Source: Bryobacterales bacterium (GTDB lineage Bacteria; Acidobacteriota; Terriglobia; Bryobacterales; UBA6623). Taken from it: a stretch of DNA of 64,000 nt. The position numbers and the translations under genes were made by a program. Positions 18,230 to 54,160 of the stretch are shown here, piece by piece; the stretch's first letter is position 1; the number at the start of each line of letters is the position of its first letter. The DNA is taken from contig CBDEST010000005.1 of assembly GCA_965242625.1 (NCBI GenBank), forward strand, positions 1,773,632 through 1,837,631, read 5' to 3'. Below the pieces are notes generated by a model. The model saw nothing but the letters and a program-made list of their open reading frames with translations. It was not told the DNA's origin and did not search any database.

Positions 18230-18245
18230 GGTGGCGTCCTTTCAA

Positions 18246-28307: not shown

Positions 28308-28321
28308 GAAAGGATGATCCA

Positions 28322-36219: not shown

Positions 36220-36492
36220 CCAAGGAAAGTCGGAACTACCAAGAAATTCGCCAAGGGTGATCGCCGCCGCTTTCAGAGCCCGCTCGCTGACAAGATCAAT
36301 GAGATACTGACGCTCTTGGAGTCCGGTGCCACCCCGGTGGAGTTGGAAGAGAATGGCTGTCAGATCCATCGACTGACCGGCGACCGCAAGGGTGCCTACG
36401 CCATCGCGGTCTCGGCCCGCTACCGCATCGTCTTCCACTACGAGGACGGTGACGTCTATGATGTGGAAGTGATCGACTACCACAAGAGTTGA
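36220..36492 (+). pseudogene. higB: HigB/RelE-like toxin fragment (second copy)
   Basis: The frame opens after the TAG at 36217-36219 and ends ...YDVEVIDYHKS with TGA at 36490-36492. Near-identical to 28035-28307. No start codon. Confidence 0.6.
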
Positions 36493-36506
36493 GAAAGGAT
36501 GATCCA

Positions 36507-36929
36507 ATGGAACCGGATATCAACCGAGCGGATCCGCCGCCCGAGCTGTACGCCATCGACGGTGCCGTGCCGGCCGCAGTGCTCGAGGCGAAGGTCGAGT
36601 GGCTGCGCCGCAACCCCATGCACCCCGGGCGGCTCATCGCCGGCACCTGCGAGCGCAAGTCTCTCAGCACGGCGGAGGCAGCCGCGCTGTTGGGCATCGC
36701 GTGCGCGGACCTGACCGAGGTGATCGAGCAACGGGCACCCGTCACGCCCGAACTCGCCCTGCGGATGGAAGCGGCAGGCTGGTTGAAGGCCGCTACTTGG
36801 ATGCGGTCGCAGAGTGCCTACGATCTCGCGCAAGCGCGGAGGAGACTCGAGCGCACCGGGGCGATCCCTGCGGCGGCGGCCCCTGCACGGCAGCAAGCCA
36901 GCACCATGGAGTCCGCGGCCGCGCGCTGA
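36507..36929 (+). CDS. higA: HigA-family HTH antitoxin (second copy)
   Basis: Near-identical to 28322-28744. Confidence 0.7.
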   Translation: MEPDINRADPPPELYAIDGAVPAAVLEAKVEWLRRNPMHPGRLIAGTCERKSLSTAEAAALLGIACADLTEVIEQRAPVTPELALRMEAAGWLKAATWMRSQSAYDLAQARRRLERTGAIPAAAAPARQQASTMESAAAR

Positions 36930-37321
36930 GCTAGCGATTCAGGCGCGAGGGCTGCATAGGCACCTGCGGAGAGCACACACGGCTTACCTCGCGGTGAGCC
37001 TGCCGGGCACGATCTCGTCGGAGGCCTTGGCATCCTCATCAAGGGCCGGACATGAGTGTCGCGGCAAGGATTCGCGTCCGCCACAAGAGCACCTGCGCGG
37101 TATCCTGGCGGGCCTCAACTCGGAGATGACTCCCGGGCACCCATTGGCTGCGCGGCACGCTCGCCGCGCAGCTCGGCGGCGCATGGACATCGCCCCGTGG
37201 ATCCAAGCCGCGGGCTAGCTGGAGCACTACGAAGAAGCTCACCGGCAGAGACCTGCGCGGCATTCCTGACCGCAACCGCCCAGACCGGACCCCGAAACAC
37301 GCTCCAGCTCTATCGCGAGCT

Positions 37322-37780
37322 TCAGCGCTCGAGACGACCCAGCGATCGTGGCGATCCCTTCTTCTGTTGCTCGCCCGCAGTTTCGTTCGCGGACATGGCG
37401 GAACCGGCAAAACCGCACCAAGCCACATAGCGTTTGCATGTGATCCATGCAACCGCTGGCAACAGCACGGCAGGAACCACCAAGTCCTCCGGCTGGCTAC
37501 TCAAGATCTGCGTCTGCTGCAAAGACGCTAGCACCGCCATGAACACGAGATAAACAGTGACAGAGCGCAGGAGATCACGTTTGCTGAATGTTCTTGCGCT
37601 GTTGCGTAGTGGTGGGTTTCTGGCTAGGCCGATCTCGGCTAGCGCGACGAAGGCCACAGCCATGCAGAGCCAGAGGATCACGTACTCGTAGCGACCCGCG
37701 GCTCCGAGTCCACACACACCAGCCAGAGCGACAGTGGCACCGCACCACGCGCACCGCGTTCCGATCCCGCTAGGACTCAC
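37322..37780 (-). CDS. integral membrane protein, hypothetical (copy of 29141-29599)
   Basis: 152 aa, near-identical paralog. Confidence 0.45.
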   Translation of the reverse strand: MSPSGIGTRCAWCGATVALAGVCGLGAAGRYEYVILWLCMAVAFVALAEIGLARNPPLRNSARTFSKRDLLRSVTVYLVFMAVLASLQQTQILSSQPEDLVVPAVLLPAVAWITCKRYVAWCGFAGSAMSANETAGEQQKKGSPRSLGRLER

Positions 37781-38129
37781 TGCTGCACACCGCCGTATAC
37801 GTGTATAGCGTCTCGTACGACACGCACACGAGGGAGCCTACCAAACAGGCTGGTATACCGACAATCTGACCAAAGGCCGGAACGGCATTAGGCCAGACAG
37901 TGCATGTGGCAAGCCACAGGGCGCATCGAGTCGTCCCGTCTGCAATCTCGTCCCGGCACCTGACTTCACACTCAGAAGGCTCGTCCTCGACCGGCTCGTC
38001 CTCGCCTTGGGCTTGCGTCGGTACAACAAGCAGTGAGACGAGACAGACGAATGCGAAACCGATCAAGCTGTGCCTGGTCATTTCGCGCCTCCTGTGAGGC
38101 GAGGACGCCTTGCGGGGCAAGCGGTGCAA
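37770..38129 (-). CDS. small Cys-rich secreted or membrane protein (copy of 29589-29948)
   Basis: 119 aa, near-identical paralog. Confidence 0.4.
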   Translation of the reverse strand: MHRLPRKASSPHRRREMTRHSLIGFAFVCLVSLLVVPTQAQGEDEPVEDEPSECEVRCRDEIADGTTRCALWLATCTVWPNAVPAFGQIVGIPACLVGSLVCVSYETLYTYTAVCSSES

Positions 38130-38658
38130 CGTGCATTGCGATCAGCAACTGGATCATCGGCCCGCTCCACGAACCGTTGCATGTCCTCGTCGCTCAAGTT
38201 CGGATCGACTTTCGTTGCGACTGGTCGGACAATTGTCGAGAGAGATTCCGGGTCGCCGCCGTTTAACGAGTAGCCTTCCCGGATGCCCTTGGAGAACTCC
38301 ATTGCTTGCGGGAGACATGGCAGTAGCGCGGTCTCTCCAAGCGACACGCCATCGCGAGCATCATACTGGCTAAGACTGTCGGCAACGTCGATGCACCCGT
38401 GCAGCATCGCTGACAGTTGTGGCGAGTTTCCGTTCCGGTCGGATCGGCACCGTTGGCTAGCAAGACGCGCATCACGGCGTGGGTTCCCCTCGACATCGCT
38501 AAGTCCATAAGCGTGAGGTTCATGTCGTCCGTGTGATGCGGGTCAGCACCGTGCCCAAGCAAGGCCCTGACTATCCGCAAGGAGCAATCAGTCCCCGTCT
38601 GTCCGCGCATGACGGCGTAATGAGGCGCAGTTCTCTTCCTGTGGCTCTCTGCATTCAC
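38078..38658 (-). pseudogene. ankyrin-repeat protein, same frameshift as 29897-30477
   Basis: GTG start at 38658. ANK repeats lie in two frames (131-aa and 109-aa track ORFs). Confidence 0.5.
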
Positions 38659-40390
38659 TGAAGCACACTGGCGCTGGCAGTACGCCAGCGCGGAGGCGCA
38701 CCACCGGGGTGCGATAATCGCGGCAATCGTCGGCCAGCCGCCCGCGGCCGCTTGCGGAAGCGCGGCCCAGCGAGGACTCCATGCCGAGCGCGGATCACGG
38801 GCGGCGCGATGCCTTGCCAGTCGGCACGGTCCTGCGGGAATTCACGATCCAAGCGGTGCTCGGGCACGGGGGCTTCGGGATCGTCTACCGGGCCGGGCAC
38901 AACGAACTGGAGCTGACGGTCGCGATCAAGGAATACCTGCCGGTGGAACTGGCCGTGCGGGAAGGCGCGACGGTGCAGCCGCGGAGCGGGACGGAGCGCA
39001 AGGACTTCGCGGAGGGGCTGCGACGGTTCCGGGACGAAGCGCAAGCGCTGATCGATTTCGACAGCCATCCGAGCATCGTGTCGTGCCGGGAGTTCTTTCG
39101 GGCGCACGGGACGGCGTATCTGGTGATGGGGTACGAGGAGGGGCAGTCGCTGGCGGAAGTGCTGGCAAGGCGCGAAGCGGAGGGACGACCGTTTGAGGCG
39201 GCGGACTTGCTGGGGGTGATGCAGCCTGTGCTGGAGGGGTTGGAGCGCGTCCACGCGGCGGGGGTGCTGCATCGAGATATCAAGCCTTCGAACATCCTGA
39301 TCCGGCGGCGGGACGGGCGGCCGGTGCTGATCGACTTCGGAGCGGCGAAGCAGGCAGCGGCGAGGTTCAGCAAGTCGCAGGCACCGTACACGGAGGGGTA
39401 CGCGGCCTTGGAACAAGTGGCGGACGCGGGGAAGCTGGGACCGTGGACGGACATGTACGGAGTGGGAGCGGTGATGTGGCGGATGGTGGCGGGCGGGAAG
39501 CGGCCGTGGGAGCCGCCGCATCCGGTGCGCGTGGAACAGCGCTCGCATGCGGCGCTGGGTGGAACGGAAGATCCGATGCCGTCGGCGAGGGAGCTGGGCA
39601 AGGGTCGGTTTCCGACGCCGATGCTGGAGGTCATTGACCGGTGCTTGCGGCTGCGGGAAGGGGAACGGATGCAAGGCTCGCGCGAGCTGCTGGAGGCTCT
39701 TGGTGAGGTGAGCGAGCCGCGTCCGGTGGGATTTCCGGGGGCCGCTCGGCCGCTGGCCGAGCGAACTGGCGCGAAGCGACAGGAACGGGGGCCGCGTGCA
39801 ACGCCAGTACGCGCAGAGCCGCGCACAGGGTGGCGACGGGGTGGGTGGATCGCGCTGGCGAGCTTGGTGGTCGGGTTGGGGCTGGTGGTTGCCACATGGT
39901 GGAGTTCCGGCTCCGAGGAAACGGTTCGCGATCAAGTGCCCGCCGGCGCCTCGGATGGCGTAGGAGACGAGATCGCGGTATTGGAGCGAGAGGAATCGGT
40001 GGATTCGGTTCCGAGCCCCGACCAACCGACCGAGGATCGGGAGTCCCCGCTGGAAGCCGGCGGGAGCGCTCAGGACCCAGATCCGATCTCGGTTGGATCT
40101 GGCCGCAATGAAGAGGATGCCGAAGCCGAGAGCGGGCGGGATAGCGACGACAGCCTCAAGGTGGGGCCGGAGGGGTCGCAAGACAGTTTGGCGCAGCCCT
40201 GGATTCGGGATTGGGACGCATTGGGGGACATCCGCGATCCGGGATTCGCCACGACAGCGCAGGCGTACATCGAAAAGTACAAGGAGGTGCCTGAGGCGAG
40301 CGTGTGGGTAGCCAAGGCGGAAGGGCTGCTGGCCGAGCTGGCGGAGTTGGAAGCGGCGAGTCCAACGCGGCGCGAGGCAGGCGAGTCGTG

Positions 40391-42174
40391 AGTTCATTCC
40401 AATCCGAAAATGAGCCTGAACGAGGGCCGAGGGAAGGGATGCGGGAACGGAGTGATTATAGACCCACGGGAGGGTCTGCTGCAAGCCCAGTGCCACCGCC
40501 TTATGCTAGGAAGGCAGCCGAAGCGGACGCGCGGCTCTGCCGAGGGGCAACCGCGCTAGGAATAGGTTGCGCTGGTGACCGATGGTCCCCCGGGGCGGTT
40601 CCGGTTGGAGCCGCCCCGGTCATGGTCGTCGGCACGGGGCCCTTCCATCGGGGCCAGCTCATGCCTAAGGAAAACCTCGGGGGGTTCGGGGGGCAGAGCC
40701 ACCCGTCAGATAACAAGGCTGCGCCCGCAGGGCGCAGACCGATGACCCCGCTGGAGCGCACCGCGGCACGGCCCGTGCGGAAAGACTCGATTCCAACGTG
40801 AGATGAGCCTGAACGAGGCCGCGCTCAGGCCGCCTCCCGCAGTTCCGCGAAGAGCGCCTCGCGCGCCTCTTGCAGAGCGCGCGCCGCTGCGTGGTCCGTC
40901 TGCGCGTGCGCCTCCCGGTCCAACTCCGCGAAGCTCACCTCCGGCCGCAAGTAGCGCGCCGCCTCCGGCAGCGCCTTGAGCCGCTCGTACGGCGTGCGGA
41001 TGTCGGCTGGCCGGTAGACCTTGCGCTGCTTCCCCTTGGCATCCGTCTCCACGCGCGGGTACAGGCACGGCCGGTGGTAGTTCAGGTACGGGTCCAGCAC
41101 CTCGCGGTGGAACCGGTCCAGGCGCTCCGCGTGGCGTCCCGGGATGTGCCCGTACCCGAATTGCTTGCGGATCACGCTGCCGTTCTTGCTCTCCGCCAGG
41201 GCGTTGTCGTTGCTGCGCCGCGGGCGCGACTTGGTGAACTCCTCCACGCGCAGCTTCTCCAGCAGCGCGGCCACTTGGTAGTTCACGTACTCGGACCCGT
41301 TGTCGGAGTGAAACCCATGCACGACAAAGGGGAACGACTCCAGCAGCCGCTCCAGCACCGGCACCAGGTAGCGCTCGGAAATGCGCTCCACGCACCCCGT
41401 GAACTGGTACTGGGTGACCGTGTCGACCGCGTTGATGTGATACACCCCCTTGACCTTGTCGAGGTCGCCCTGATGCACCGAGTCCACCCGCACCCAGCCC
41501 GGGCGGCCCTCCGGGCGCGGCTTGCGCCGCTCGCCGATCGGCACCGTCGCGGGGCGCGTGCCGTCCAGGTTGCCGAGCACGCGCACGTAGGCCGTGGAGT
41601 GCCGCAAATTGTACAGGTGGCCGTGGGAGATCCCCGCCAGCCGCTCGTAGCGCTCGTCGCCGAAGACCTCGAAAGCCCGGCGCAGCAAGGCCATCGTGGC
41701 CGGGCCGGACAGCGTGCCGTGCAGCGCGTCCGTCTCGGCCAGCAGCAGGATGTCGTCCCGCGTGTAACGCCGCGGGAACGGCCGCGCCGCCCCCGTGCGC
41801 CCGTCCGCCACGCCCCCGTTCTCGATGTACGCCGCGATCAGCCGCGCCACCTGCGCCCGCGACAGCCCCGTCGTCCGCTGCAAGTACGTCCGCAGCAAGC
41901 CCCGCTCCGCGCGCTTGTTCAGCTTCCAGTACGAGAACCGCCGCATCGTGCGCTCCACGTGCGCGTACGCCTCCGTACGCGACGGAGCCAGCGCCGCCTC
42001 CGGCGGCGTCGCCTCCAGGAACTGACGCACGTCCGCCAAGGTCCGGTGCGTCGCCAGATCGATTTGCAAGATCACCCTCCGATGATCCGCGCATCCCCAC
42101 CGGAGCCTCGTTCAGGCTCATCTCTCGTTGGAATCAACCCCCTCGTTCAGGCTCATCTCTCGTTGGAGAAGACT
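40391..42174 (-). mobile_element. IS element with an rve-type DDE transposase (ISNCY/IS1202-group-like, tentative), 1784 bp
   Basis: A 5-bp direct repeat TCGTG flanks it (40386-40390 and 42175-42179). The imperfect ~34-bp TIRs AGTTCATTCCAATCCGAAAATGAGCCTGAACGAGG and the reverse complement of CCTCGTTCAGGCTCATCTCTCGTTGGAGAAGACT share the core ATGAGCCTGAACGAGG. A second, inner copy of the end sequence sits at each side (40783-40817 and 42107-42135). Confidence 0.8.
40825..42075 (-). CDS. DDE integrase/transposase (rve core)
   Basis: 416-aa ORF with an N-terminal HTH-like region. The catalytic-core signatures read ...VDSVHQGD...HINAVD..., FHSDNGSEYVN and RPRRSNDNALAESKNGSVIRK. Confidence 0.85.
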   Translation of the reverse strand: MILQIDLATHRTLADVRQFLEATPPEAALAPSRTEAYAHVERTMRRFSYWKLNKRAERGLLRTYLQRTTGLSRAQVARLIAAYIENGGVADGRTGAARPFPRRYTRDDILLLAETDALHGTLSGPATMALLRRAFEVFGDERYERLAGISHGHLYNLRHSTAYVRVLGNLDGTRPATVPIGERRKPRPEGRPGWVRVDSVHQGDLDKVKGVYHINAVDTVTQYQFTGCVERISERYLVPVLERLLESFPFVVHGFHSDNGSEYVNYQVAALLEKLRVEEFTKSRPRRSNDNALAESKNGSVIRKQFGYGHIPGRHAERLDRFHREVLDPYLNYHRPCLYPRVETDAKGKQRKVYRPADIRTPYERLKALPEAARYLRPEVSFAELDREAHAQTDHAAARALQEAREALFAELREAA

Positions 42175-42904
42175 TCGTGGATGAATTCGTTGGGCATGGA
42201 GTTTGTCTGGATTCCTGCGGGGAAATTCCTGATGGGCTCACCGGCGAACGAAGAGGGTCGTTATCCCGACGAGAGTCAGCACGAGGTGCGGATCAGCGAG
42301 GGGTATTGGATGAAGAAGCACGAGGTGACGCAGGGCGAGTGGGTGGCGGTGACGGGTGCGAACCCGTCGCGTTTCTCCAAATGCGGTCCGCTGTGCCCAG
42401 TGGAGGGAGTGTCCTGGGTCGATACGCAGGAGTTCATACGGAGGTTGAACTCGCGGGAATCCGGGAGGGGGTACGTGTACCGATTGCCGACAGAGGCGGA
42501 GTGGGAGTACGGGGCGCGGGCGGGGACGCCCGGGGCGCACTACGGAAAGTTGGACGGTATCGCGTGGTATCGGGCAAACAGGGGCAGGAGGACCCATCGG
42601 GTAGGGCAGAAGCGGCCTAACGCGTGGGGCTTGTATGACATGCTGGGAAACGTGTGGGAGTGGACGGGGGACTGGTACGGCGAGTATCCGTCTGGTTCGG
42701 CGACGGATCCCGGGGGGCCCGAGTCGGGCTCGTACCGGGTGAATCGGGGTGGCGGCTGGAGCGACGACGCGGGGAACGTTCGGTCGGCTATTCGCTTCAG
42801 CGCCCAGCCCGATGCCCTCGGCAGCAGCCTCGGCTTCCGCTTGGTCAGGACAGAGTGATACTTGGTGCTACTGCCCTTTCACCCCTGGGTGCGTAAGGTG
42901 CGAA

Positions 42905-43379
42905 GAGTGCGTGCGTCGGCTCGCGAAGGCCGGAGCGAAAGCGAACGAGCCGTGCGGCAAAACGCACGCCTGGGCTTGGAGTTGTTCTTTGAGCGCGGTC
43001 TGGGGTAATCGGGCGGCGGCCGGCGGCTCCGAGGACGGCAGTTCGAATCTTCTCTCCCCTTCGGGACGCAATGGGCGGTTGGAGCAAAGCTGAAATGTCC
43101 GGTTGAGTCTGGGCCTGCGGCGTCGGCCATTCTGTCGCGGTCGAACCCTCCATCGAGGGGCTCCCTTGCTGAGGAAAATCGGAAGCATTGGGTGCTGTCC
43201 GGTAAGCCCGTGCGCTTCCCGGGGGAGAGGCTGGGGAGGGACTACGGCTTCGCATACCTGAGTGTCTGGAAGGGTAGCTTCGCGTTACCGACGGTCGGAT
43301 CTTGAACGAGAGCCGAATGCGGGAAATCCGTACGCTCGGTTCGAAGAGTGGAGAGCGGAAACGTAGTCAAGGTAGAGAC
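42905..43379 (+). repeat. group II intron relic R5
   Basis: Standard spacer unit. Domain V at 43310-43342 (GAGCCGAATGCGGGAAATCCGTACGCTCGGTTC). Confidence 0.65.
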
Positions 43380-43607
43380 CAATGAGCCGGCACAGAGGAG
43401 AAAGCCGTTGGTGAACGGCTACTCCCTCAATCGTCGACAAGCACGCCTCTCGTTGGCTCCGCCTCAGAAACCCGATGATCTGTGGGATCCGTCTCCCGCG
43501 CTGGCAGTACGCCGGCGCGGAGGCGGGCCACTGGGGTGCGATAATCACGGCAATCGTCGGCCAGCCGCCCGCGGCCGCTTGCGGAAGCGCGGCCCAGCGA
43601 TGACTCC

Positions 43608-44684
43608 ATGCCGAGCGCGGATCACGGGCGGCGCGACGCCTTGCCAGTCGGCACGGTCCTGCGCGAATTCACGATCCAAGCGGTGCTCGGACACGGGGGC
43701 TTCGGGATCGTCTACCGGGCCGGGCACAACGAACTGGACCTGACGGTCGCGATCAAGGAATACCTGCCGGTGGAATTGGCCGTGCGGGAAGGCGCGACCG
43801 TGCAGCCGCGGAGCGGGACGGAGCGCAAGGACTTCGAGGAGGGGCTACGACGGTTTCGAGACGAAGCGCAAGCGCTGATCGATTTCGACAGCCATCCGAG
43901 CATCGTGTCGTGCCGGGAGTTCTTTCGGGCGCACGGGACGGCGTATCTGGTGATGGGGTACGAGGAGGGGCAGTCGCTGGCGGAAGTGCTGGCAAGGCGC
44001 GAAGCGGAGGGACGACCGTTTGAGGCGGCGGACTTGCTGGGGGTGATGCAGCCTGTGCTGGAGGGGTTGGAGCGCGTCCATGCAGCGGGGGTGCTGCATC
44101 GGGACATCAAGCCGACGAACATCCTGATCCGGCGGCGGGACGGGCGGCCGGTGCTGATCGATTTCGGAGCGGCGAAGCAGGCCACGGCGAGGTTCAGCAA
44201 GTCGCAGGCGCCGTACACGGAAGGGTACGCGGCTTTGGAACAAGTGGCGGATGCGGGGAAGCTGGGACCGTGGACGGACATGTACGGAGTGGGAGCGGTG
44301 ATGTGGCGGATGGTGGCGGGCGGGAAGCGGCCGTGGGAGCCGCCGCATCCGGTGCGCGTGGAACAGCGTTCACACGCGGCACTGGGGGGAACGGAAGACC
44401 CGATGCCGTCGGCGAGGGAGCTGGGCGCGGGTCGCTTTCCGTCGCAGATGCTGGAGGTCATCGACCGGTGCTTGCGGCTGCGGGAGACGGAACGGATGCA
44501 AGGGTCGCGCGACCTGCTGAAGGCGTTGCGCACGGTAACTGATCGGTCTCGCCTTGGGTCCCGTATCGTAGGCCACAATGACAGAATCAGCGCGATCCGC
44601 TCCAACCCACCAACAGTGACTCTGAGCGCGACGAGCAGCCAACGTCGACGTTACGCGCAAGCTCATCAGCCTCACCGATGCTAG
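43608..44684 (+). pseudogene. Ser/Thr kinase, array copy 6, 3'-truncated (kinase domain only)
   Basis: Homology to the other copies ends near 44525 (...MQGSRDLLKALR). The remaining 50 codons are unrelated sequence leading into the low-GC island. There is no TM helix, FGE domain or variable block. Confidence 0.75.
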
Positions 44685-44849
44685 CCTTCGCAGAAACAGC
44701 CTCTGACAGCCATCCCGCCCTTACGCCGGTGCCGGCATAATCCCTCCGTACTTCCGCGTTCGTGAAAGTTACTCAAGACTGCTAGCAAGAATGCTGATTC
44801 TTCGATGAAAGAAACTTTGATCTTAAATCGCCAACGAAACAGAACCACC

Positions 44850-47321
44850 TTACGACGCCGCTGCCTTAGGCACAGCGATGCTCAAATACTCTCGTTTCAA
44901 GTCATCACGCAACTGAACAAGGTCCTTCTCGCGGGGAAACTTTCGAGTGCCCTCCTCTAATGTTGATACGAGTGTTCGCAAATAGCGTCCCTTATCCTGT
45001 CCACTCATTCCTCTTCTGGACCATGCCAGACCTTGGCTTCCTAGAACGTGGTAAGGGTAACTGCTAAAACGATCAGGCTTACCGATCAGATCTTCCAGTA
45101 TACTTGTGGCTTCTTTCACCAACTTTGGTGCATCCTTGCTCTGAGGGTGCTGGATAGCCCTTCGTAACAGCAAATACGCCCATTCATTCTGAACCATTGG
45201 GTCACCGTCTGCAATCGCTTTAGCTTGGCCTAGGAACTGCTCTGCTGAATCCAAATCCCCCTCTTCGACCTCGACACTACCCCTCTGCAACCAGTAGTGA
45301 TAATCCCAACTCAGTAAAGACTCTAAAGACGAATACAGATTCCTAGCGACATCTAGGCCAACTACACGTAAGAGATAGTCGTGACTCAACAAGACCTGAA
45401 GCATCTTCTTAGGACGGTCAGACCGTGACATGTCTTGTCTAACCTTCGTCGCAGCTAGGTGTGCAAGTCCCTCGATAACTCCCTTGAGTTGACCCGCGTC
45501 TTGCAACTGATCGTGAATTATCTCGGCGATCATTCTGTGACGGGCCCAAATCACTCCGTTTGCACCGAGTTTCAATACCTTCCGATTCACTAGTTGATCA
45601 GTTGCGTTCAGGATTTCATTCGACACGCTGCCAGATGCGATGAGTAATTCGTCTCTCTTGATGCCAAATCGGAACGAATGTGCCACTGCAACGAATGCGT
45701 AGATCATTGCAGAAATGGTACCCAACTCACCCAGTTCATCGATGACTTTCTCGTCGAATCGACGGCCAGAAGTTGCTTGTATCATCGCAACAAGAAGCTG
45801 TCTTCCAGCTTGTTCTTGAAAATTCTTGCGCTGCTGGGCACGTGGCAAACCCTTCATAGATCCAAGCCGATTGTACTTGTCCAAGAGATCAATTAACCCA
45901 TCGATATCGTTATTAGTTAAGTGAGGCATGGGAATCTCATCGATTGCGATGTTGTGGAGCATGGACCTGTTCACGACCTTATCGACCTTACTTGAGCGAA
46001 CTGCGATAATGATTACCCTCGATTTGTCATTGCCGATCAATTCAGAAACCAGATGAGATAGTGTTGCTCCATACATGTCAGCATCATCAATCGCAAGTAC
46101 TTGAGGGCTGTATTCGCGATTCATTTCTCGATGGATATTTCGCTGCGAAATCATGTGGTCTCTGTCGACCCAAGCAACAGCAGACCCCTGTCCTTGAAGA
46201 CGAAGGCATACCCTCATGAGGGAAGTGCTCTTGCCAGATCCTGCAGTCCCAGTCACGACAATTAATCGTCCCCTTGAAGCTTCGATGCTACGTTGGATAT
46301 TTGTCCAAACCTCCTGATCGATACTTCGTTGTACAGCTCGTCCTGATTGTAAATCAGCCCAGATGGGTTCTTGACCCAGTAAGAACTCGCTCGCTTCGAG
46401 TGGGTTTGTGGCTAGATCTGCTACCAATGGAAGCCGCTTGGAGTGTTCGGCGGTCGACTGAGCAAGGACGCTCAGACCAATGTGAGCTTCCTTCTGTACT
46501 TGTTTGAGTACACGGCCCACAAACTGTTCCGCTGTCATTGGAATCCATTCGATGTTCAGATCCGCTAGCAATGCTTTTCTTGCCATGACCAATTTTGGTG
46601 TGACCAGATAAGATCTAGGGCGTAGTTCACGCAATTCTCTACCTCCGTGAACACGACGATACTCAATGTGTTGCCATAGTGGTGGTTCGTCTAGGCGGGT
46701 GCCAATAATTATTACCGGACGACTCACTAAGTCCGCAGCAAAATCCTGATAATACGGGTCAGGATGAGCAAATCGGTCCGCGTATTGTGTAAGGGAGAAT
46801 GTCACATCGTGGGGCAAATCCTCCAATGTTCCGTTGAGATGAATTACCTTCAGTAGAGATTCGCTGAGTTTTTTTGTAGAAGACATTGGGTGCTTTGCGG
46901 AAACTGCGGCAAGCGGCCGAGGTAAATCAAAGGCTGAATTTGCGGCATCGGCCATGTTGTCTATATTTAGAGTATAGCACCGATACCAAGGCAATGAAAA
47001 CACCTGTCGATACCAATCTGGTAATGTACTTGAACTTATCGTGAGCATGTCTCGTAGAAGAGATTCTGCCTGACGTGGATGTCGTCTCAGCGCATGGTCA
47101 TACAGATCTTGCAATGGAGAACCGTCGAATTCGTCATTTGGGAAGCAAAGCCTCCAAAGTGCATGCTGAAGATCTTCGTAGGATGGCAGTCTGTGGTTCG
47201 TGGCAGTCGCTGCTTCCAATGAAAAGCCGGCTCCGGTGAAGAGCACGGGCAGTCCGCTTTGAAACTGAGTTTTGAGGTGTGGAATGAAAGTGTTATCCAG
47301 CTTTTCGTCAATGATACTCAT
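44850..47321 (-). CDS. SIR2-like (SIR2_2) - P-loop STAND NTPase - TPR-like repeat protein (Avs/SIR2-STAND-like defence candidate)
   Basis: 823-aa ORF in a low-GC island. N-terminal SIR2_2 hallmarks: PVLFTGAGFS, YTLNIDN, IHLNGT, VIIIGTRLDEPPLW. Walker A is IVVTGTAGSGKSTSL and Walker B is VLAIDDADMY. The C-terminal ~300 aa are helical and repeat-like. Confidence 0.8.
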   Translation of the reverse strand: MSIIDEKLDNTFIPHLKTQFQSGLPVLFTGAGFSLEAATATNHRLPSYEDLQHALWRLCFPNDEFDGSPLQDLYDHALRRHPRQAESLLRDMLTISSSTLPDWYRQVFSLPWYRCYTLNIDNMADAANSAFDLPRPLAAVSAKHPMSSTKKLSESLLKVIHLNGTLEDLPHDVTFSLTQYADRFAHPDPYYQDFAADLVSRPVIIIGTRLDEPPLWQHIEYRRVHGGRELRELRPRSYLVTPKLVMARKALLADLNIEWIPMTAEQFVGRVLKQVQKEAHIGLSVLAQSTAEHSKRLPLVADLATNPLEASEFLLGQEPIWADLQSGRAVQRSIDQEVWTNIQRSIEASRGRLIVVTGTAGSGKSTSLMRVCLRLQGQGSAVAWVDRDHMISQRNIHREMNREYSPQVLAIDDADMYGATLSHLVSELIGNDKSRVIIIAVRSSKVDKVVNRSMLHNIAIDEIPMPHLTNNDIDGLIDLLDKYNRLGSMKGLPRAQQRKNFQEQAGRQLLVAMIQATSGRRFDEKVIDELGELGTISAMIYAFVAVAHSFRFGIKRDELLIASGSVSNEILNATDQLVNRKVLKLGANGVIWARHRMIAEIIHDQLQDAGQLKGVIEGLAHLAATKVRQDMSRSDRPKKMLQVLLSHDYLLRVVGLDVARNLYSSLESLLSWDYHYWLQRGSVEVEEGDLDSAEQFLGQAKAIADGDPMVQNEWAYLLLRRAIQHPQSKDAPKLVKEATSILEDLIGKPDRFSSYPYHVLGSQGLAWSRRGMSGQDKGRYLRTLVSTLEEGTRKFPREKDLVQLRDDLKREYLSIAVPKAAAS

Positions 47322-47333
47322 TGTCTGCTCCAG

Positions 47334-47621
47334 TCAGCTGCCTGCGGGTCGCTCCAGTATGTACGAGTTGTGGCATCTCCACCGGGGTGTCCCACTGTAC
47401 CTTGCCTGAATCGGGAGACTGCTGTCAACGAGACCACTTGCTCGAAGCCGGTACTGCGCTCGGGCGTCTGCATTCATATCCAGTTGCTGGCTCAGGTGAA
47501 TTGCCGTCGAGTGCCGGATTCTAGGAACAACGTCATCGCGGTCGCCACAGGGGGTTCTGCTGGATCCACGATCAAGTTCTTGACGCCCTCCGACGAACCC
47601 CGTGCTCTCGTCCTCAATCAC
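47334..47621 (-). CDS. possible small ORF upstream of the SIR2-STAND gene
   Basis: 95-aa ORF ending 13 nt before the SIR2 gene start, in the same orientation. No motif recognised. Confidence 0.2.
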   Translation of the reverse strand: MIEDESTGFVGGRQELDRGSSRTPCGDRDDVVPRIRHSTAIHLSQQLDMNADARAQYRLRASGLVDSSLPIQARYSGTPRWRCHNSYILERPAGS

Positions 47622-47841
47622 GACCCCTGGGCACGGTGCAGGCCGAGCCCTCGAACCTACCCTGCACGATCATCTGCCTGCCATCGCTGACCGAGTTGAA
47701 TCGTTGCGACGGCAAGTTGATGAACCCAAGGCACCTGCCGGTCATTATACACGCACTGTCACGGGATCCGCAATGCCAGACTAGTTCAACGAGATATGAG
47801 CATCCGTCTTGGAGGTCACGGGCGGTTTTCATGTATGCCAA
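47614..47841 (-). CDS. possible small ORF upstream of 47334-47621
   Basis: 75-aa ORF overlapping the next ORF by 8 nt, in the same orientation. No motif recognised. Confidence 0.2.
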   Translation of the reverse strand: MAYMKTARDLQDGCSYLVELVWHCGSRDSACIMTGRCLGFINLPSQRFNSVSDGRQMIVQGRFEGSACTVPRGRD

Positions 47842-47845
47842 TCAA

Positions 47846-48960
47846 GTCCGTGCGTTCATGTGGGTGCCTTTGCAACTAGCCGGGTACCTAACCGGCGGGA
47901 CTTGCGGCGTCGGTGGCGAAGGGGTCGCATAGCGGGACGCTGCAAGTGGCCTCGCTTGCTCCGCTGCCGGGCAATGTCTACCAGACGACATGACGCCTAC
48001 GGTCGATCGCGACGGTCGCTTCGCGAAAAGACCAAGTGAAACAAGGCCTTTGGGGTGAGCTGGACGCTCGCCGGAGAGTCGTAGCCGGCCAGCGCCCGTG
48101 ATAATGATTTCGGCCCCACAGCGGCCGGATGCGGACCCAGCGAGGAGCGCAGTGGCGGACTACCGTGCCGGTTGCGCGAGTCTTTGTCGAAGGGACTCTT
48201 TCGCGGTGGACAGCTAGCTGGGATCACGATTTGCATCGGTAAGGCGTAGCGTTCGGCGAGGGCGCACTGGCGCACGATCCCGATCTCGGGGCTCCCGACC
48301 CGCGCAAGCAGTCCGATCTGCCCCAAAGAAGCGATCCGATCGAGGCTGATCAAGGAGTCCCACAGCTTCCGCAACCGGGATCATGAACTGGAAATCCTTA
48401 TCATTCTCAACTGGCCAGAGGTCGTGTTGTCTGGTCTACATGCACTTTGCGTGGAAGACGCTGGGCCGCGCTTGGCAGGTCGGCGCAGTAATCGTCCATT
48501 ACCCGGACGGCCCCGTGATCTGCGGGCGGGTCCCGGAGGCACCAAAGCGGTCGGCGGTCGAGCGGCTGATGGAGCGGCTGCCGTTGCCGCCGGACGCGAC
48601 GAAGACTCGTTCCATGCGCGCGGGGGAGGAGCCGTTGGAGTTCCTCCCACAACGGGCCACGCAACTACATCCCAGTACGGGCAAAGCGTACGTAGGCACG
48701 CGCCCGCGCCTCAAGATCGATCCGTGATCGGAAGCGCGGGACGGACTGCTGCCTGCGACGGAGGTAGTGGAAGGCCCCAACCGAGCCATGCTCGGCTGGG
48801 CGAACTAGTTCTGCCTAGGATGGGCGAGCCCGTCCCACGCGGCCGTCGACGCGCTCGGGCTCAAGCGGCTGCGCCAGTGGCTGGGGAGGTGGCCCGAGGC
48901 GGAGTCCGGGAAATCCGCACGCCCGGTTCGACGAGCGGAGAGGGGAAACGTAGTCAAGGT
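47846..48960 (+). pseudogene. long group II intron relic (RT domains 4-7, X, degenerate domain V/VI) carrying a MITE insertion
   Basis: 47846-47981 aligns with 17172-17300. After the MITE, 48434-48730 reads IVHYPDGPVICGR ... PPDATKTRSMRAGEEPLEFL, with YADD decayed to YPDG. LGWAN*F shows a stop inside the maturase motif. A degenerate domain V lies at ~48897-48929, followed by a domain VI-like segment and then the standard leader of array copy 7. Confidence 0.65.
47982..48433 (+). mobile_element. MITE-like element, copy C (452 bp), inserted into the RT relic
   Basis: TIRs CAGACGACATGAC (47982-47994) and GTCGTGTTGTCTG (48421-48433). A 6-bp direct repeat GTCTAC flanks it (47976-47981 and 48434-48439). 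The uninterrupted homolog of the target is at ~17300. Confidence 0.75.
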
Positions 48961-49082
48961 AGAGACCGAGGCACCTGCACAGGGGCGAGAGCTGTCGGCG
49001 CGCTGCTACTCTCTCCATCCACGACAAGTGCGCCTCTCGTTGGCTCTACCTCAGAAACCCGATGATCCGCGGGATCCGTCCC

Positions 49083-49194
49083 CCGCGCTGGCAACACGCC
49101 AGCGCGGAGGCGCGCCACTGGGGTGCGATAATCACGGCAATCGTCGGCCAGCCGCCCGCGGCCGCTTGCGGAAGCGCGGCCCAGCGAGGACTCC
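49083..49194 (+). promoter_or_regulatory. conserved leader of the array genes (example upstream of copy 7): GC hairpin plus GATAAT box
   Basis: A 10-bp-stem hairpin, CCGCGCTGGC-AACAC-GCCAGCGCGG (~49083-49107), is followed by GATAAT at 49127-49132, 63 nt before the ATG. The same ~130 nt precede all 11 array genes, including the two whose upstream spacer was replaced by the ankyrin module. Confidence 0.35.
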
Positions 49195-51480
49195 ATGCCG
49201 AGCGCGGATCACGGGCGACGCGACGCCTTGCCAGTCGGCACGGTCCTGCGGGAATTCACGATCCAAGGGGTGATCGGGCACGGGGGCTTCGGGATCGTCT
49301 ACCGGGCTGGGCACAACGAACTGGACCTGACGGTCGCGATCAAGGAATACCTGCCGGTGGAACTGGCCGTGCGGGAAGGCGCGACCGTGCAGCCGCGGAG
49401 CGGGACGGAGCGCAAGGACTTCGAGGAGGGGCTGCGCCGGTTCCGGGACGAAGCGCAAGCGCTGATCGATTTCGACAGCCATCCGAGCGTCGTGTCGTGC
49501 CGGGAGTTCTTTCGGGCGCACGGGACGGCGTATCTGGTGATGGGGTACGAGGAGGGGCAGTCGCTGGCGGAAGTGCTGGCGAGCCGGGAGGCGGAGGGAC
49601 GGCCGTTCGCGGCGGCGGACTTGCTGGGGGTGATGGAGCCGGTACTGGAGGGGTTGGAGCGTGTCCATGCAGCGGGGGTGCTGCATCGGGATATCAAGCC
49701 GTCGAACATCCTGATCCGGCGGCGGGACGGGCGGCCGGTGCTGATCGACTTCGGGGCGGCGAAGCAGGCCACGGCGAGATTCAGCAAGTCGCAGGCGCCG
49801 TACACGGAGGGGTACGCGGCCTTGGAACAAGTGGCGGACGCGGGGAAGTTGGGACCGTGGACGGACATGTACGGGGTGGGAGCGGTGATGTGGCGGATGG
49901 TGGCGGGCGGGAAGCGGCCGTGGGGGCCGCCGCATCCGGTGCGCGTGGAACAGCGCTCGCATGCGGTGGTAGGCGGGACGGAAGACCCGATGCCGTCGGC
50001 GAGGGAGTTGGGGAAGGGTCGGTTTCCGTCGCAGATGCTGGAGGTCATTGACCGGTGCTTGCGGTTACGGGAGACGGAACGGATGCAAGGTACGCACGAG
50101 CTGCTGAGGGCCCTTCGTGGGGTGGGCGAGTTGCTTCCGGCAGGGTCCGCAGAGATCGTGCGGCCGCTGGAGGAGCGAACTGGAGTCAAGCGGCAGGATG
50201 CGGGATCGCATGCGACGCCAGTACGCGCAGAGCCGCGAACAGGGTGGCGCCGCGGTGGGTGGATCGCGCTGGCGAGCTTGGTGGTCGGGCTGGGGTTGGT
50301 GCTGGCGACATGGTGGGGTTCGGGATCGGAGGAAACCGTACGCGATCAAGCACCTGCTGGAGCCTTGGATGAACTTGGTGTCGAGAGTGGAGACCCGGAG
50401 CGAGTGGAGGAGGATTCGGTTCCGAGTCCCAACCAGCCCGCCAAGAACCGGTCGTCCCCGCCGGAAGCTGGCGGGACCGCTCAGGATCCAGATCCGATCT
50501 CGGTCGGATCTGGACGCACTGAAGAGGCTGCCCAAGCCGAGAGCGGGCGGGATGGCGAAGACAACCTTGAAGTGAGCCCGGAGCCGTCGCAAGACAGCTT
50601 CGTACAGCCTTGGATCCGGGATTGGGATGCCATGGGAGACATCCGAGATCCGGGATTCGCCGCGACAGCGCGGGCGTACATCGAACGGTACAAGGAGATC
50701 GATGAGGCGAGCGTGTGGGTTACGAAGGCGGAGGGGCTACTGGCCGAGTTGAGGGAGTTGGAATTGGTGACAGCAACGAAGCGCGAGGCAGGCGAGACGT
50801 GGACGAATTCGTTGGGGATGGAGTTCGTCTGGATTCCGGCGGGGAGCTTCCAGATGGGCTCCCCGGCGGAGGAAGTGGGTCGTTGGCCCGACGAGCAACA
50901 GCACGAGGTCCGGATCAGCGAGGGCTTTTGGATAGGGAAGAATGAGGTGACGCAAGGGGAGTGGGTAGCGGTGATGGGAACGAACCCGTCGGCGTTCTCA
51001 GATTGCGGCATGCGTTGCCCGGTCGAGAGTGTGTCGTGGGACGACACGCAGGAGTTCATACGGAGGTTGAAGTCGCGGGAATGGGGGAACGGGTACGTAT
51101 ACCGATTGCCGACCGAGGCGGAGTGGGAGTGCGCGGCTAGGGCGGGGACACCCGGGGCGCGCTACGGCGAGTTGGGCGCAATCGCGTGGTATTCGGCAAA
51201 CAGCGGCGATAGGACGCATCCGGTCGGGCAGAAGCGGCCTAACGCGTGGGGCTTGCACGACATGCTGGGAAACGTCTGGGAGTGGACGGGAGACTGGTAC
51301 GGCGCGTATCCGTTCGGTTCGGTGGCGGATCCAAGAGGTCCCGAGTCGGGCTCGGGCCGGGTGGATCGGGGCGGCGGCTGGAACAACGGCGCGGGGAGCG
51401 TTCGGTCGGCGCATCGCTACAGCTACTCGCCCGGCTTCCGCTACCTCGGCATCGGCTTCCGCTTGGTCAGGACAGAGTGA
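49195..51480 (+). CDS. Ser/Thr kinase - TM - linker - FGE-sulfatase protein, array copy 7
   Basis: 761 aa with all motifs. Variable block at 51355-51453. Confidence 0.9.
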   Translation: MPSADHGRRDALPVGTVLREFTIQGVIGHGGFGIVYRAGHNELDLTVAIKEYLPVELAVREGATVQPRSGTERKDFEEGLRRFRDEAQALIDFDSHPSVVSCREFFRAHGTAYLVMGYEEGQSLAEVLASREAEGRPFAAADLLGVMEPVLEGLERVHAAGVLHRDIKPSNILIRRRDGRPVLIDFGAAKQATARFSKSQAPYTEGYAALEQVADAGKLGPWTDMYGVGAVMWRMVAGGKRPWGPPHPVRVEQRSHAVVGGTEDPMPSARELGKGRFPSQMLEVIDRCLRLRETERMQGTHELLRALRGVGELLPAGSAEIVRPLEERTGVKRQDAGSHATPVRAEPRTGWRRGGWIALASLVVGLGLVLATWWGSGSEETVRDQAPAGALDELGVESGDPERVEEDSVPSPNQPAKNRSSPPEAGGTAQDPDPISVGSGRTEEAAQAESGRDGEDNLEVSPEPSQDSFVQPWIRDWDAMGDIRDPGFAATARAYIERYKEIDEASVWVTKAEGLLAELRELELVTATKREAGETWTNSLGMEFVWIPAGSFQMGSPAEEVGRWPDEQQHEVRISEGFWIGKNEVTQGEWVAVMGTNPSAFSDCGMRCPVESVSWDDTQEFIRRLKSREWGNGYVYRLPTEAEWECAARAGTPGARYGELGAIAWYSANSGDRTHPVGQKRPNAWGLHDMLGNVWEWTGDWYGAYPFGSVADPRGPESGSGRVDRGGGWNNGAGSVRSAHRYSYSPGFRYLGIGFRLVRTE

Positions 51481-52222: not shown

Positions 52223-54160
52223 ATGCCGAGCGCGGATCACGGGCGGCGCGACGCCTTGCCAGTCGGCACCGTCCTGCGCGAATTCACGATCCAGGCGGTG
52301 CTCGGACACGGGGGCTTCGGGATTGTCTACCGGGCCGGGCACAACGAACTGGACCTGACGGTCGCGATCAAGGAATACCTGCCGGTGGAATTGGCCGTGC
52401 GGGAAGGCGCGACCGTGCAGCCGCGGAGCGGGACGGAGCGCAAGGACTTCGCGGAAGGGCTGCGCCGGTTCCGGGACGAAGCGCAAGCGCTGATCGATTT
52501 CGACAGCCATCCGAGCATCGTGTCGTGCCGGGAGTTCTTTCGGGCGCACGGGACGGCGTATCTGGTGATGGGGTACGAGGAGGGGCAGTCGCTGGCGGAA
52601 GTGCTGGCGAGCCGGGAAGCGGAGGGTCGCCCGTTCGCGGCGGCGGACTTGCTGGGGGTGATGCAACCCGTGCTGGAGGGGTTGGAGCGCGTCCACGCAG
52701 AGGGGGTGCTGCATCGGGATATCAAGCCGTCGAACATTTTGATCCGGCGACTGGACGGGCGGCCGGTGCTGATCGACTTCGGTGCGGCGAAGCAGGCCAC
52801 GGCGAGATTCAGCAAGTCGCAGGCGCCGTACACGGAAGGGTACGCGGCATTGGAGCAAGTGGCGGACGCGGGGAAGCTGGGGCCGTGGACGGACATGTAC
52901 GGGGTGGGAGCGGTGATGTGGCGGATGGTGGCGGGCGGGAAGCGGCCGTGGGAGCCGCCGCATCCGGTGCGCGTGGAACAGCGCTCGCATGCGGTGGTAG
53001 GGGGAACGGAAGATCCGATGCCGTCGGCGAGGGAGTTGGGCAAGGGAAGGTTTCCGTCGCAGATGCTGGAGGTCATTGACCGGTGCTTGCGGCTGCGTGA
53101 AGGGGAACGGATGCAAGGGTCGCGCGAGCTGCTGGAGGCTCTGCGCGAGGTGAGCGAGCCACTTCCGGCAGGGTCTTCAGAGGCTGCTCGGCCGCTGGCC
53201 GAGCGAACTGGTGCCAAGCGACAGGAACCGGGATCGCATGTGGTGCCAATGGGTGCAGAGCCGCGAATGGATGGGTGGATCTCGCAGCCGTGGATCCGGG
53301 ATTGGGATGCCGTGGGAGACATCCGGGATCCGGGATTCGCCGCGACAGCGCGGGCGTACGTCGAACAGTACAAGCAAGTGGCAGAGGCGAGGGTGTGGGT
53401 GGCGAAGGCTGAGGGGCTGCTGGCCGAGCTGAGGGAGTTAGAAGCGGCGAGGGCTACGCAGCGCGAGGCAGGCGAGGCGTGGACGAATTCGTTAGGCATG
53501 GAGTTCGTCTGGATTCCGGAGGGGACCTTTCTGATGGGCTCACCGATGCACGAAGTGGGTCGATTTCTTAACGAGCGACAGCACGAGGTCCGGATCAGCG
53601 AGGGCTTTTGGATAGGGAAGTATGAGGTGACGCAAGGGGAGTGGGTAGCGGTGATGGGAACAACCCCGTCGGCGTTCTCAGATTGCGGAATGCGTTGCCC
53701 GGTCGAGAGTGTTTCGTGGGACGACACGCAGGAGTTTATTTGGAAGTTGAACTCGCGGGAATCCGGGAACGGGTACGTAAACCGATTGCCGACCGAGGCG
53801 GAGTGGGAGTACGCGGCGCGGGCGGGGACACCCGGGGCACGCTACGGCGAGTTGGGCGCGATCGCGTGGTATTTGGCAAACAGCGGCAGCAGGACGCATC
53901 CGGTAGGGCAGAAGCGGCCTAACGCGTGGGGCTTGCACGACATGCTGGGAAACGTCTGGGAGTGGACGGGAGACTGGTACGGTGAGTATCCGTCTGGTCC
54001 GGTCGCAGACCCCAAAGGTCCCGAGTCGGGCGCGGCCCGGGTGGGTCGGGGCGGCAGCTGGGACCGCAACGCGAGGCTCGTTCGGTCGGCGGTTCGCGAC
54101 TACAACTCGCCCGGCGACCGCGGCAACTACTTCGGCTTCCGCCTGGTTAGGACAGAGTGA
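52223..54160 (+). CDS. Ser/Thr kinase - FGE-sulfatase protein, array copy 8 (no TM helix, no acidic linker)
   Basis: 645 aa. The kinase is joined via ...AEPRMDGWISQPWIRDWD... directly to the helical segment and the FGE domain. Variable block at 54035-54133. Confidence 0.9.
   Translation: MPSADHGRRDALPVGTVLREFTIQAVLGHGGFGIVYRAGHNELDLTVAIKEYLPVELAVREGATVQPRSGTERKDFAEGLRRFRDEAQALIDFDSHPSIVSCREFFRAHGTAYLVMGYEEGQSLAEVLASREAEGRPFAAADLLGVMQPVLEGLERVHAEGVLHRDIKPSNILIRRLDGRPVLIDFGAAKQATARFSKSQAPYTEGYAALEQVADAGKLGPWTDMYGVGAVMWRMVAGGKRPWEPPHPVRVEQRSHAVVGGTEDPMPSARELGKGRFPSQMLEVIDRCLRLREGERMQGSRELLEALREVSEPLPAGSSEAARPLAERTGAKRQEPGSHVVPMGAEPRMDGWISQPWIRDWDAVGDIRDPGFAATARAYVEQYKQVAEARVWVAKAEGLLAELRELEAARATQREAGEAWTNSLGMEFVWIPEGTFLMGSPMHEVGRFLNERQHEVRISEGFWIGKYEVTQGEWVAVMGTTPSAFSDCGMRCPVESVSWDDTQEFIWKLNSRESGNGYVNRLPTEAEWEYAARAGTPGARYGELGAIAWYLANSGSRTHPVGQKRPNAWGLHDMLGNVWEWTGDWYGEYPSGPVADPKGPESGAARVGRGGSWDRNARLVRSAVRDYNSPGDRGNYFGFRLVRTE

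Follow-up and report, generated by a model that had tools for sequence, protein, structure and literature searches.

Within a 64,000-nucleotide stretch of the genome of a Bryobacterales bacterium (assembly GCA_965242625.1, contig CBDEST010000005.1, positions 1,773,632 to 1,837,631), hereafter referred to as the window, a tandem array of genes encodes proteins with a Ser/Thr kinase domain and an FGE-sulfatase (FGE) domain. Comparisons inside the window and with its relatives support the view that a compositionally foreign segment, the island, stands in for the 3'-terminal 60% of kinase copy 6 together with the leading half of a spacer, and that the island carries one SIR2-STAND-TPR gene. We consider the 823-residue product of this gene to be probably an Avs5-like abortive-infection sensor that would deplete NAD+, acquired horizontally as a single-gene module. 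Its activity as an NADase, its trigger, its oligomeric state and its role against phages are assigned by analogy with EfAvs5 and PaAvs5.

Domain architecture and predicted structure

The initial annotation of the window had described the 823-residue protein as consisting of an N-terminal SIR2_2-type domain, a P-loop NTPase and C-terminal helical repeats, and Pfam and AlphaFold2 (AF2) both recovered this architecture. Pfam assigns nSTAND_NTPase5 (PF25199) to residues 312-447 (1.1e-28, 100.4 bits against a cut-off of 34) and SIR2_2 (PF13289) to residues 145-260 (2.3e-5, 25.0 bits against a cut-off of 24.5), both above their thresholds and with the domain order and length of the family, together with a weak TPR_14 match at residues 676-716. 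The nSTAND3 (16.6 bits, cut-off 27.2) and NACHT (16.0 bits, cut-off 26.7) models scored below their cut-offs. SIR2 was the only effector domain found by the Pfam scan of the 823 residues, which detected no AlbA_2, SAM or OB-fold. The AF2 model, computed with a 50-sequence alignment, has a pLDDT of 87.8 and a pTM of 0.86, and is composed of a Rossmann-type SIR2 domain (residues ~1-290), a P-loop domain (~336-466), a helical and winged-helix part (~467-611) and TPR-like helices (612-816).

The catalytic and nucleotide-binding motifs are intact. The motifs GAGFS, TLNID, HLNG, GTAGSGKST and DDAD, named already in the initial annotation, are present and conserved across 50 homologs with 47-93% identity, among which G30/G32, N119/D121, H161-x-N163-G164, G358...G363-K364-S365, D412-D413-A-D415, R442 and R594-H595-R596 are invariant or nearly so. 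The hallmarks of STAND proteins, namely Walker A, Walker B, the sensor arginine R442 and R594-H595-R596, are retained in 90% or more of the homologs or without exception. The same 50 homologs share the invariant C-terminal residues W677, Q679, G681, E684-V685-E686, H758, S762-Q763 and W767, and the mean pairwise identity among homologs is 0.54 in the C-terminal repeats, 0.53 in the SIR2 domain and 0.48 in the nucleotide-binding domain.

Kinship with defence NADases and proposed mode of action

A profile of the SIR2-nSTAND5 family searched against the Protein Data Bank (PDB) matched only SIR2 defence NADases: the SIR2 subunit of the KomBC complex, deposited as an NAD-dependent protein deacetylase (9v0g, E 4e-12), the SIR2 domain of EfAvs5 (9JAP, E 9e-12), KomC (9xvc, E 4e-9), AVAST5 (9nah, E 5e-7) and ThsA (6lhx, E 8e-5). 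A second, weak stretch colinear with EfAvs5 connects profile positions 342-709 with chain positions 374-742, covering the NTPase and the C-terminal region. N119 aligns with EfAvs5 N141, N163 with EfAvs5 N180 and KomC H146, and R442 with the "TTR" arginine of EfAvs5, while YTLNID corresponds to YTTNYD and vvHLNG to cLHING of EfAvs5. When the AF2 model was searched with Foldseek, EfAvs5 ranked first over the full length (E 3.8e-26, ~15% sequence identity), followed by human SAMD9 (3.7e-15, TMq 0.42) and the AVAST5 filament (3.8e-15); DSR2, KomC and ThsA came lower, and then NLR, ORC/Cdc6 and apoptosome ATPases.

EfAvs5 requires N141, the Walker A and B motifs and its short C-terminal sensor for NAD+ depletion (PMC11897194), and PaAvs5 hydrolyses NAD+ upon sensing a phage protein (PMC12931631). 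Following these examples, the protein would rest in the uninfected cell as a nucleotide-bound, autoinhibited monomer. A phage-encoded or infection-induced protein might then bind the C-terminal repeats, upon which the NTPase module would drive oligomerisation or filament formation, gathering the SIR2 domains into an active configuration; NAD+ would be hydrolysed and the infection aborted.

It is conceivable, albeit improbable in our estimate, that the protein is a defence STAND whose SIR2 domain is not an NAD+-depleting hydrolase and instead ADP-ribosylates a target, processes a nucleotide signal or, as the SIR2-like domain of SAMD9 may do, provides a scaffold for oligomerisation. Such a role would fit the asparagine (N163) that the whole family carries at the position of the canonical catalytic histidine, H146 in KomC, and the best global superposition with human SAMD9, the effector of which is an AlbA_2 nuclease and not SIR2 (PMC12680541). 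However, EfAvs5 also has an asparagine at this position and is an active, proven NADase despite the same HxNG motif (PMC11897194). The lack of any other effector domain in the 823 residues and the invariance of the NAD-binding residues G30/G32, N119 and D121 further argue for the NAD+-depleting sensor.

Limits and composition of the island

In a BLASTN comparison of positions 42800-49300 with the whole window, all alignments of copy 6 to other kinase copies (87-95% identity) ended at 44524-44531. Copy 6 has ten kinase paralogs, to which similarity is lost at 44525-44531, in agreement with the abrupt end near 44525 noted initially. The same search found no match elsewhere in the window for 44532-47789, and the array becomes recognisable again mid-spacer, at 48895. 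By paralogy, the island thus covers 44532-47792 (~3.3 kb) with its right edge at about 47792/47793; the span of 44525-47845 proposed at first was correct in its left edge and its AT-richness and too long on the right side.

Across 44750-47250, windows of 500 bp have a G+C fraction (GC) of 0.47-0.49, down from 0.66-0.69, with a recovery to 0.57-0.61 by 48000. The SIR2-STAND gene (2,472 bp) is the lowest-GC stretch in the 64 kb, with a GC of 0.481 against a mean of 0.637 (sd 0.030) for all 2,472-bp windows outside the island (z ~ -5.2). At third codon positions (GC3), the gene has a value of 0.465, the kinases and methylases 0.71-0.80, and the insertion sequence (IS) integrase of the window 0.94. 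These values indicate that the compositional shift is large and mostly at synonymous sites, which bears out the AT-richness perceived in the initial annotation. The low-GC core roughly corresponds to the SIR2-STAND gene and ~320 bp downstream, and the island DNA upstream of the gene is closer to the surroundings (Table 1). Promoter and terminator scans gave counts no higher than in shuffled sequence, with none in the intergenic parts: no terminator-like hairpin appeared in 44532-44849 and no sigma-70-like promoter in 47322-47792.

Truncated kinase copy 6 and its array

Copy 6 retains the kinase domain (Pfam Pkinase, 8e-37, residues 22-298) and has no FGE-sulfatase match; in the full copy 7, FGE-sulfatase lies at residues 543-759. 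The first 915 bp of copy 6 are 93-96% identical to all other copies. Its last ~52 codons and the stop at 44684 are island DNA, so that the reading frame converges with the SIR2-STAND gene, which stops at 44850. Self-BLASTN and Pfam therefore bear out the earlier observation that the transmembrane, FGE and variable region (VR)-like parts of copy 6 and half of a spacer are absent.

Full kinase-FGE genes terminate in VR-like ends, in which the last ~130 nt show hypervariable dinucleotides interspersed among conserved bases, followed by a conserved 3' end. Ten such ends were found, nine in full copies and one at 61217-61416, and their pattern is as would be expected for retroelement-diversified variable regions. 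The window contains no A-rich template copy for these ends and no reverse transcriptase.

Two further features of the array were recorded. An IS-type integrase (rve) at 40825-42075 on the minus strand splits copy 5 into a kinase part (38781-40391) and an FGE/VR end (~42170-42858). A ~2.3-kb segment with several small minus-strand open reading frames (ORFs) occurs between copies 2 and 3 (28184-30487) and again between copies 4 and 5 (36369-38668), and is kept at 93-94% identity at 12788-15076 of a related sequence, L086, described below.

Table 1. Features of the island, the kinase array and the surrounding window. Values given for the defence genes are those of the PADLOC and Pfam annotation.
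Feature	Position	Strand	Description
SIR2-nSTAND5-TPR gene	44850-47321	-	823 aa; ATG start, GGAG 6 nt upstream
Predicted SIR2 effector domain	46452-47321	-	aa 1-290; GAGFS, T117-L-N119-I-D121, H161-L-N163-G164
Predicted P-loop nucleotide-binding domain of the STAND module	45924-46316	-	aa 336-466; Walker A GTAGSGKST (357-365), Walker B DDAD (412-415), sensor arginine R442
Predicted helical and winged-helix part of the STAND module	45489-45923	-	aa 467-611; invariant R594-H595-R596; from AF2 secondary structure and Foldseek
C-terminal TPR-like helical repeats, presumed sensor	44853-45488	-	aa 612-823; ten AF2 helices in 612-816, pLDDT mostly >85
Left non-coding part of the island	44532-44849		GC 0.54; the kinase ORF and the SIR2-STAND gene end convergently on its two sides; unique in the window
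Upstream non-coding part of the island	47322-47792		GC 0.59; presumed promoter and 5' untranslated region of the SIR2-STAND gene
Small frame	47334-47621	-	95 aa; judged spurious
Small frame	47614-47841	-	75 aa; judged spurious
Truncated kinase copy 6	43608-44684	+	358 aa; intact Ser/Thr kinase domain; paralog similarity stops at ~codon 306
Right flank, outside the island proper	47793-48917		~650-bp repeated element (47793-47980 and 48439-48917)
MITE-like insertion	47981-48434		454 bp; imperfect 14-bp terminal inverted repeats (CCAGACGACATGAC...); TCTA target duplication at 47977-47980 and 48435-48438
VR-like end	23211-23410		full copy
VR-like end	27534-27733		full copy
VR-like end	32689-32888		full copy
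VR-like end	35712-35911		full copy
VR-like end	42659-42858		full copy
VR-like end	51281-51480		full copy
VR-like end	53961-54160		full copy
VR-like end	56688-56887		full copy
VR-like end	59455-59654		full copy
VR-like end	61217-61416		
Type IIG restriction-methylase	2186-5161		1.5e-42
Type IIG restriction-methylase	6261-9428		2.2e-38; paralog of 2186-5161
HEC-01A ATPase	11004-12359		4.6e-121
Type II methylase	14739-16208	-	2.8e-135
Type II restriction enzyme	16205-16885	-	1.5e-57; 4-bp overlap with the methylase ORF
PD-Lambda-2_B (helix-turn-helix and M78)	18912-20678	-	2.9e-72
Fused PARIS AriAB	62281-64000		7.6e-158; runs off the right end of the window

Selection on the gene and the small upstream frames

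Two metagenome contigs, L001 and L002, which are effectively one sequence, encode a protein 93% identical to the SIR2-STAND protein and share ~90% DNA identity with the whole island. In the comparison with L001, the gene shows 37, 22 and 152 substitutions at codon positions 1, 2 and 3, with 141 synonymous and 54 nonsynonymous codons, a pattern that clearly points to purifying selection. It is the sole credible gene of the island.

The initial annotation had also suggested that two small co-oriented ORFs upstream could be partners. A three-gene operon, in which these frames of 95 and 75 residues encode partners or regulators of the SIR2-STAND protein, would agree with both being open and co-oriented in the window and still open in L001. 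Against it, their substitutions fall about equally on the three codon positions (6/11/11 and 8/11/5), with nonsynonymous changes dominating (7 synonymous versus 19 nonsynonymous, and 3 versus 18); they start with GTG and TTG, match nothing in Pfam, PADLOC or NCBIfam, and were called as genes in neither L001 nor L002. The DNA upstream of a 78%-identical homolog (L003/L004) is unrelated. From 78 genome loci and five metagenome contigs we also took those in which the match was nearly full-length, clustered the ORFs of at least 50 residues within 3.5 kb, and found no conserved neighbour of the SIR2-nSTAND5 gene; the largest cross-locus cluster comprised nine loci and had no fixed position. Because the small frames bear no coding signature and no neighbour is conserved, we regard the system as a single gene. 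The three-gene reading is largely refuted by these comparisons and has, in our opinion, very little chance of being right.

Origin of the island and nature of its right flank

Foreign composition together with the single-gene organisation makes horizontal acquisition of the island as a single-gene immune module the most likely origin. The gene would have arrived in, or recombined into, the tandem kinase-FGE array, with copy 6 losing everything after its kinase domain. The junction of kinase and island is identical in L001 and L002, apart from a 36-bp indel immediately on the island side, within the otherwise conserved segment 44532-44849. Since the junction is common to these relatives, the arrangement predates their ~10% divergence, and the loss of the 3' part of copy 6 would have occurred before the split.

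A closer relative, represented by L086 from a 277-kb contig, is 95% identical to positions 17123-22187 of the window. Its array consists of five full kinase copies without a SIR2-STAND gene. Repeat arrays of 93-96% identity expand and contract easily, and L086 accordingly demonstrates presence/absence variation rather than a clean empty site: the comparison with a relative lacking the island, suggested at the outset, yielded such an array, the copy number of which differs and which contains no exact empty site. The initial annotation had further stated that the missing part of copy 6 was deleted on insertion. This is a fair description of the sequence, though as a mechanism it is at most putative. 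The junction is old, the island has no integrase or transposase, and the window has no tRNA. A search of the island edges for att-like repeats in direct orientation, as proposed initially, and in inverted orientation returned only chance-level matches of 12-18 nt, e.g., 18 nt at 83% identity.

The right flank of the island had been interpreted as a long intron relic. We found instead a repeated element of ~650 bp, the border element, with a MITE-like (miniature inverted-repeat transposable element) insertion inside it (Table 1). Self-BLAST and alignment identified a sole paralog of the border element in the window, at 17118-17726 (74-79% identity), the upstream border of the array, and another copy exists in L086 at 3249-3852. 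The element is non-coding, with no Rfam match and no consistent reading frame, and both window copies lie at boundaries. Other copies of the MITE are located at 1304-1788 (+) and 10319-10774 (-). The MITE at 47981-48434 is absent from the ~90%-identical L001, which aligns across the site, indicating a recent insertion. Rfam, applied at its gathering threshold and in E-value mode, detected no family in 44300-49300 (E<=1) and, as far as introns are concerned, none in the MITE-free L001 (E<=5), and the GTGCG at 47851 is not conserved, reading GTGGG in both L001 and the paralog; the intron interpretation was therefore abandoned. Elsewhere in the window, Rfam matched group II intron domain V/VI in the spacers at 33319-33448 and 59990-60109, and more weakly at 20833-20962, just upstream of kinase genes, and the homologous spacer segment by the island (48895-49025) is below Rfam detection.

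The border element suggests another course of events, which we hold possible though distinctly less probable than not. The gene could have lain in a variable region upstream of the border element, and recombination between or within arrays, rather than a simple insertion with deletion, could have joined it to a broken kinase copy, its low GC being a property of the family. The element at 47793 has its only paralog at the upstream array border, exactly where the synteny of L086 with the window begins; the array of L086 has no second border element; the island is devoid of att repeats and mobility genes; and the SIR2-nSTAND5 gene is AT-richer than its host throughout the family. On the other hand, the kinase copies left and right of the island, all 93-96% identical, do not group by side, and neither an empty site nor a donor context was recovered: a search of the JGI metagenomes with a degenerate 31-mer of the border element returned 0 contigs. 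An origin by fusion of two arrays was rejected on the kinase-domain identity matrix, which has no left/right grouping. Illegitimate insertion with deletion and recombination via the border element are both candidate routes of arrival. The question concerns origin only, and either answer is compatible with the proposed function as an NAD+-depleting sensor.

Defence genes in the window

We annotated the window with PADLOC and Pfam. Based on the resulting matches (Table 1), the whole window appears as one large defence island, in which the two type IIG restriction-methylases and the type II methylase/endonuclease pair precede the kinase array on its upstream side. All four of its segments with a GC below 0.55 are defence genes, namely HEC-01A, PD-Lambda-2_B, SIR2-STAND and AriAB. 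The kinase-FGE genes match the PADLOC kinase models mad6 and PD-T4-6.

Distribution of the SIR2-nSTAND5 family

A word-indexed search retrieved 702 proteins at E<=1e-3, the best 120 of which are nearly all 770-885 residues long with SIR2_2 and nSTAND5; more than 100 homologs of ~820 residues have the same architecture, with 47-93% identity and 99-100% query coverage. An exhaustive HMM search of 1.84 billion representatives yielded 1,127 clusters (50% identity) at E<=1e-30 and 4,169 at E<=1e-3. The hosts belong to more than eight phyla and include Acidobacteriota, Chloroflexota, Nitrospira, Actinomycetota, Gemmatimonadota, Myxococcota, Bdellovibrionales and Verrucomicrobiota. Among species representatives, a Bryobacterales metagenome-assembled genome comes nearest (60%), and the cultured Nitrospira moscoviensis (NSP M-1, NZ_CP011801.1, ~718-721 kb) encodes a homolog with 46% identity. 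Those of the best 120 proteins that have a name in their source are labelled "SIR2 family protein", "hypothetical protein", "SIR2-like domain" or "Mrp family chromosome partitioning ATPase". The family is thus known to Pfam, annotated generically, and appears experimentally untouched. Some homologs have additional N-terminal parts: three of 1,000-1,100 residues (P0266, P0270 and P0350) carry a DUF7226 that is not found in the protein described here, and four (P0286, P0296, P0330 and P0334) have an extension without a Pfam assignment.

In 59 of 64 loci, the family gene is AT-richer than its flanks, by a median of 6.6 points. When the 125 nearest-neighbour ORFs at 34 loci were assigned to Pfam families, phage integrase, Eco57I, N6_Mtase and the transposase DDE_Tnp_1 turned up most often, with four occurrences each, Eco57I and N6_Mtase being methylase domains of the type IIG kind. 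Resolvase and an IS200 transposase were also present, and the remainder were unrelated housekeeping genes.

The many homologs adjoining ordinary metabolic genes, and a C-terminal domain that is uniformly conserved across phyla, might be expected of a housekeeping or regulatory sirtuin-STAND unrelated to phage defence, e.g., a metabolic NAD-dependent deacylase under nucleotide control. We consider this quite unlikely because the distribution is patchy and the composition foreign, the SIR2 domain groups with the defence NADases KomC, Avs5, ThsA and DSR2 and not with deacetylase sirtuins, and the gene resides within a defence island and is missing from the array of the 95%-identical relative.

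Several observations nevertheless weigh against the protein being a horizontally acquired, NAD+-depleting phage sensor. The SIR2_2 score barely exceeds its threshold. The curated defence models miss the protein: PADLOC, the use of which had been recommended initially, gave P-loop-level matches only (Avs5 E 0.038 over 27 residues), and the NCBIfam Avs5 model (NF041814) scored 18.1 bits against a cut-off of 1000, the SIR2 and STAND domains being upheld by Pfam. The presumed sensor is conserved as strongly as the enzymatic domains, which is unexpected for an arms race with variable phage proteins. As described above, mobility genes, att repeats and tRNA are lacking. Close relatives were not found in sequenced plasmids, phages or IMG/VR, in which only distant hits of ~21-27% identity occurred. 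The survey of homolog neighbours was crude and does not amount to a formal defence-association score. Finally, a literature search on "nSTAND5" gave no papers, and the searched literature held no experiment on any family member.

The conservation of the C-terminal repeats at the level of the catalytic domains might indicate that they respond to a conserved cue and not to a variable phage protein. We may speculate, with little confidence, that the SIR2-nSTAND5 proteins form a separate antiviral STAND branch, common among phyla of soil and sediment and missed by the defence-finder models now in use, whose repeats sense an infection-perturbed host factor or a near-universal phage component, and that the gene is retained together with the decapitated kinase of copy 6 as a co-selected pair. 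As PADLOC 2023 and the NCBIfam Avs5 model miss a large family, the defence inventories of Acidobacteriota, Chloroflexota, Actinomycetota and Nitrospira probably undercount it. The present case offers a concrete, well-delimited SIR2-STAND sensor candidate outside the Avs5 (nSTAND3) clade, with a confident model and mapped putative catalytic and switch residues, and the homolog of the cultured N. moscoviensis is amenable to testing. It also illustrates that hypervariable kinase-FGE receptor gene arrays can accept and keep foreign defence cargo. Altogether, the finding extends a known theme and overturns nothing, being a fairly ordinary, if well-supported, addition to a large defence island.

Comparison with known systems

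Avs5 (AVAST type 5; EfAvs5, 9JAP; filament 9NC9/9NAH) is among the closest known systems. Like the present protein, it places SIR2 before a STAND NTPase and ends in a helical sensor of unusual shortness; the TxN(I/Y)D and HxNG motifs, the sensor arginine and the single-gene organisation are also shared, and it provides the best solved full-length structural match, with weak colinear profile similarity in the SIR2 and STAND/C-terminal parts. Avs5 has been described as Sir2 plus nSTAND3 with a short sensor (PMC12931631, PMC11897194), whereas the NTPase here is of the nSTAND_NTPase5 type, with nSTAND3 remaining below its cut-off. The curated Avs5 models fail, the identity to EfAvs5 is only ~15%, and the hosts of the SIR2-nSTAND5 family are mainly Acidobacteriota, Chloroflexota, Actinomycetota and Nitrospira, not Proteobacteria. 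A few SIR2-nSTAND5 homologs also have a weak nSTAND3 match, which makes the nSTAND3 and nSTAND5 clades neighbours. In a 2026 preprint (Gao/Koonin), the STAND tree comprises 589 clades, and ~90 families are associated with defence. Judged by profile and fold, the protein is an Avs5-like SIR2-STAND from the neighbouring nSTAND5 clade and not an Avs5 by the curated definitions. The SIR2-effector STAND, Avs-like reading of the initial annotation is hence upheld as a relationship by structure and colinear profile, and not as membership in Avs5 in the strict sense.

ThsA, DSR2 and KomC have SIR2 domains homologous to the one here, by profile for KomC and ThsA and by fold for DSR2, so that NAD+ depletion would be expected in common. 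They differ in their control: ThsA of Thoeris is activated via a SLOG domain and a cyclic ADPR signal, DSR2 has a HEAT-repeat sensor without an NTPase, and KomC works with KomB, whereas in the present protein SIR2 is fused to a STAND NTPase.

Human SAMD9/SAMD9L and bacterial Avs9 share the core of SIR2-like, P-loop STAND and TPR parts and give the best global superposition (TMq 0.42-0.43). Their AlbA_2, SAM and OB-fold domains are missing here, and they are considerably longer (~1,100-1,600 versus 823 residues). The structural kinship between Avs5 and SAMD9 has been reported already (PMC12680541).

As for the PF25199 "SIR2 family protein" cluster, the protein is a full-length member without substantive difference from the others, and what sets this copy apart is solely its position within a kinase-FGE array.

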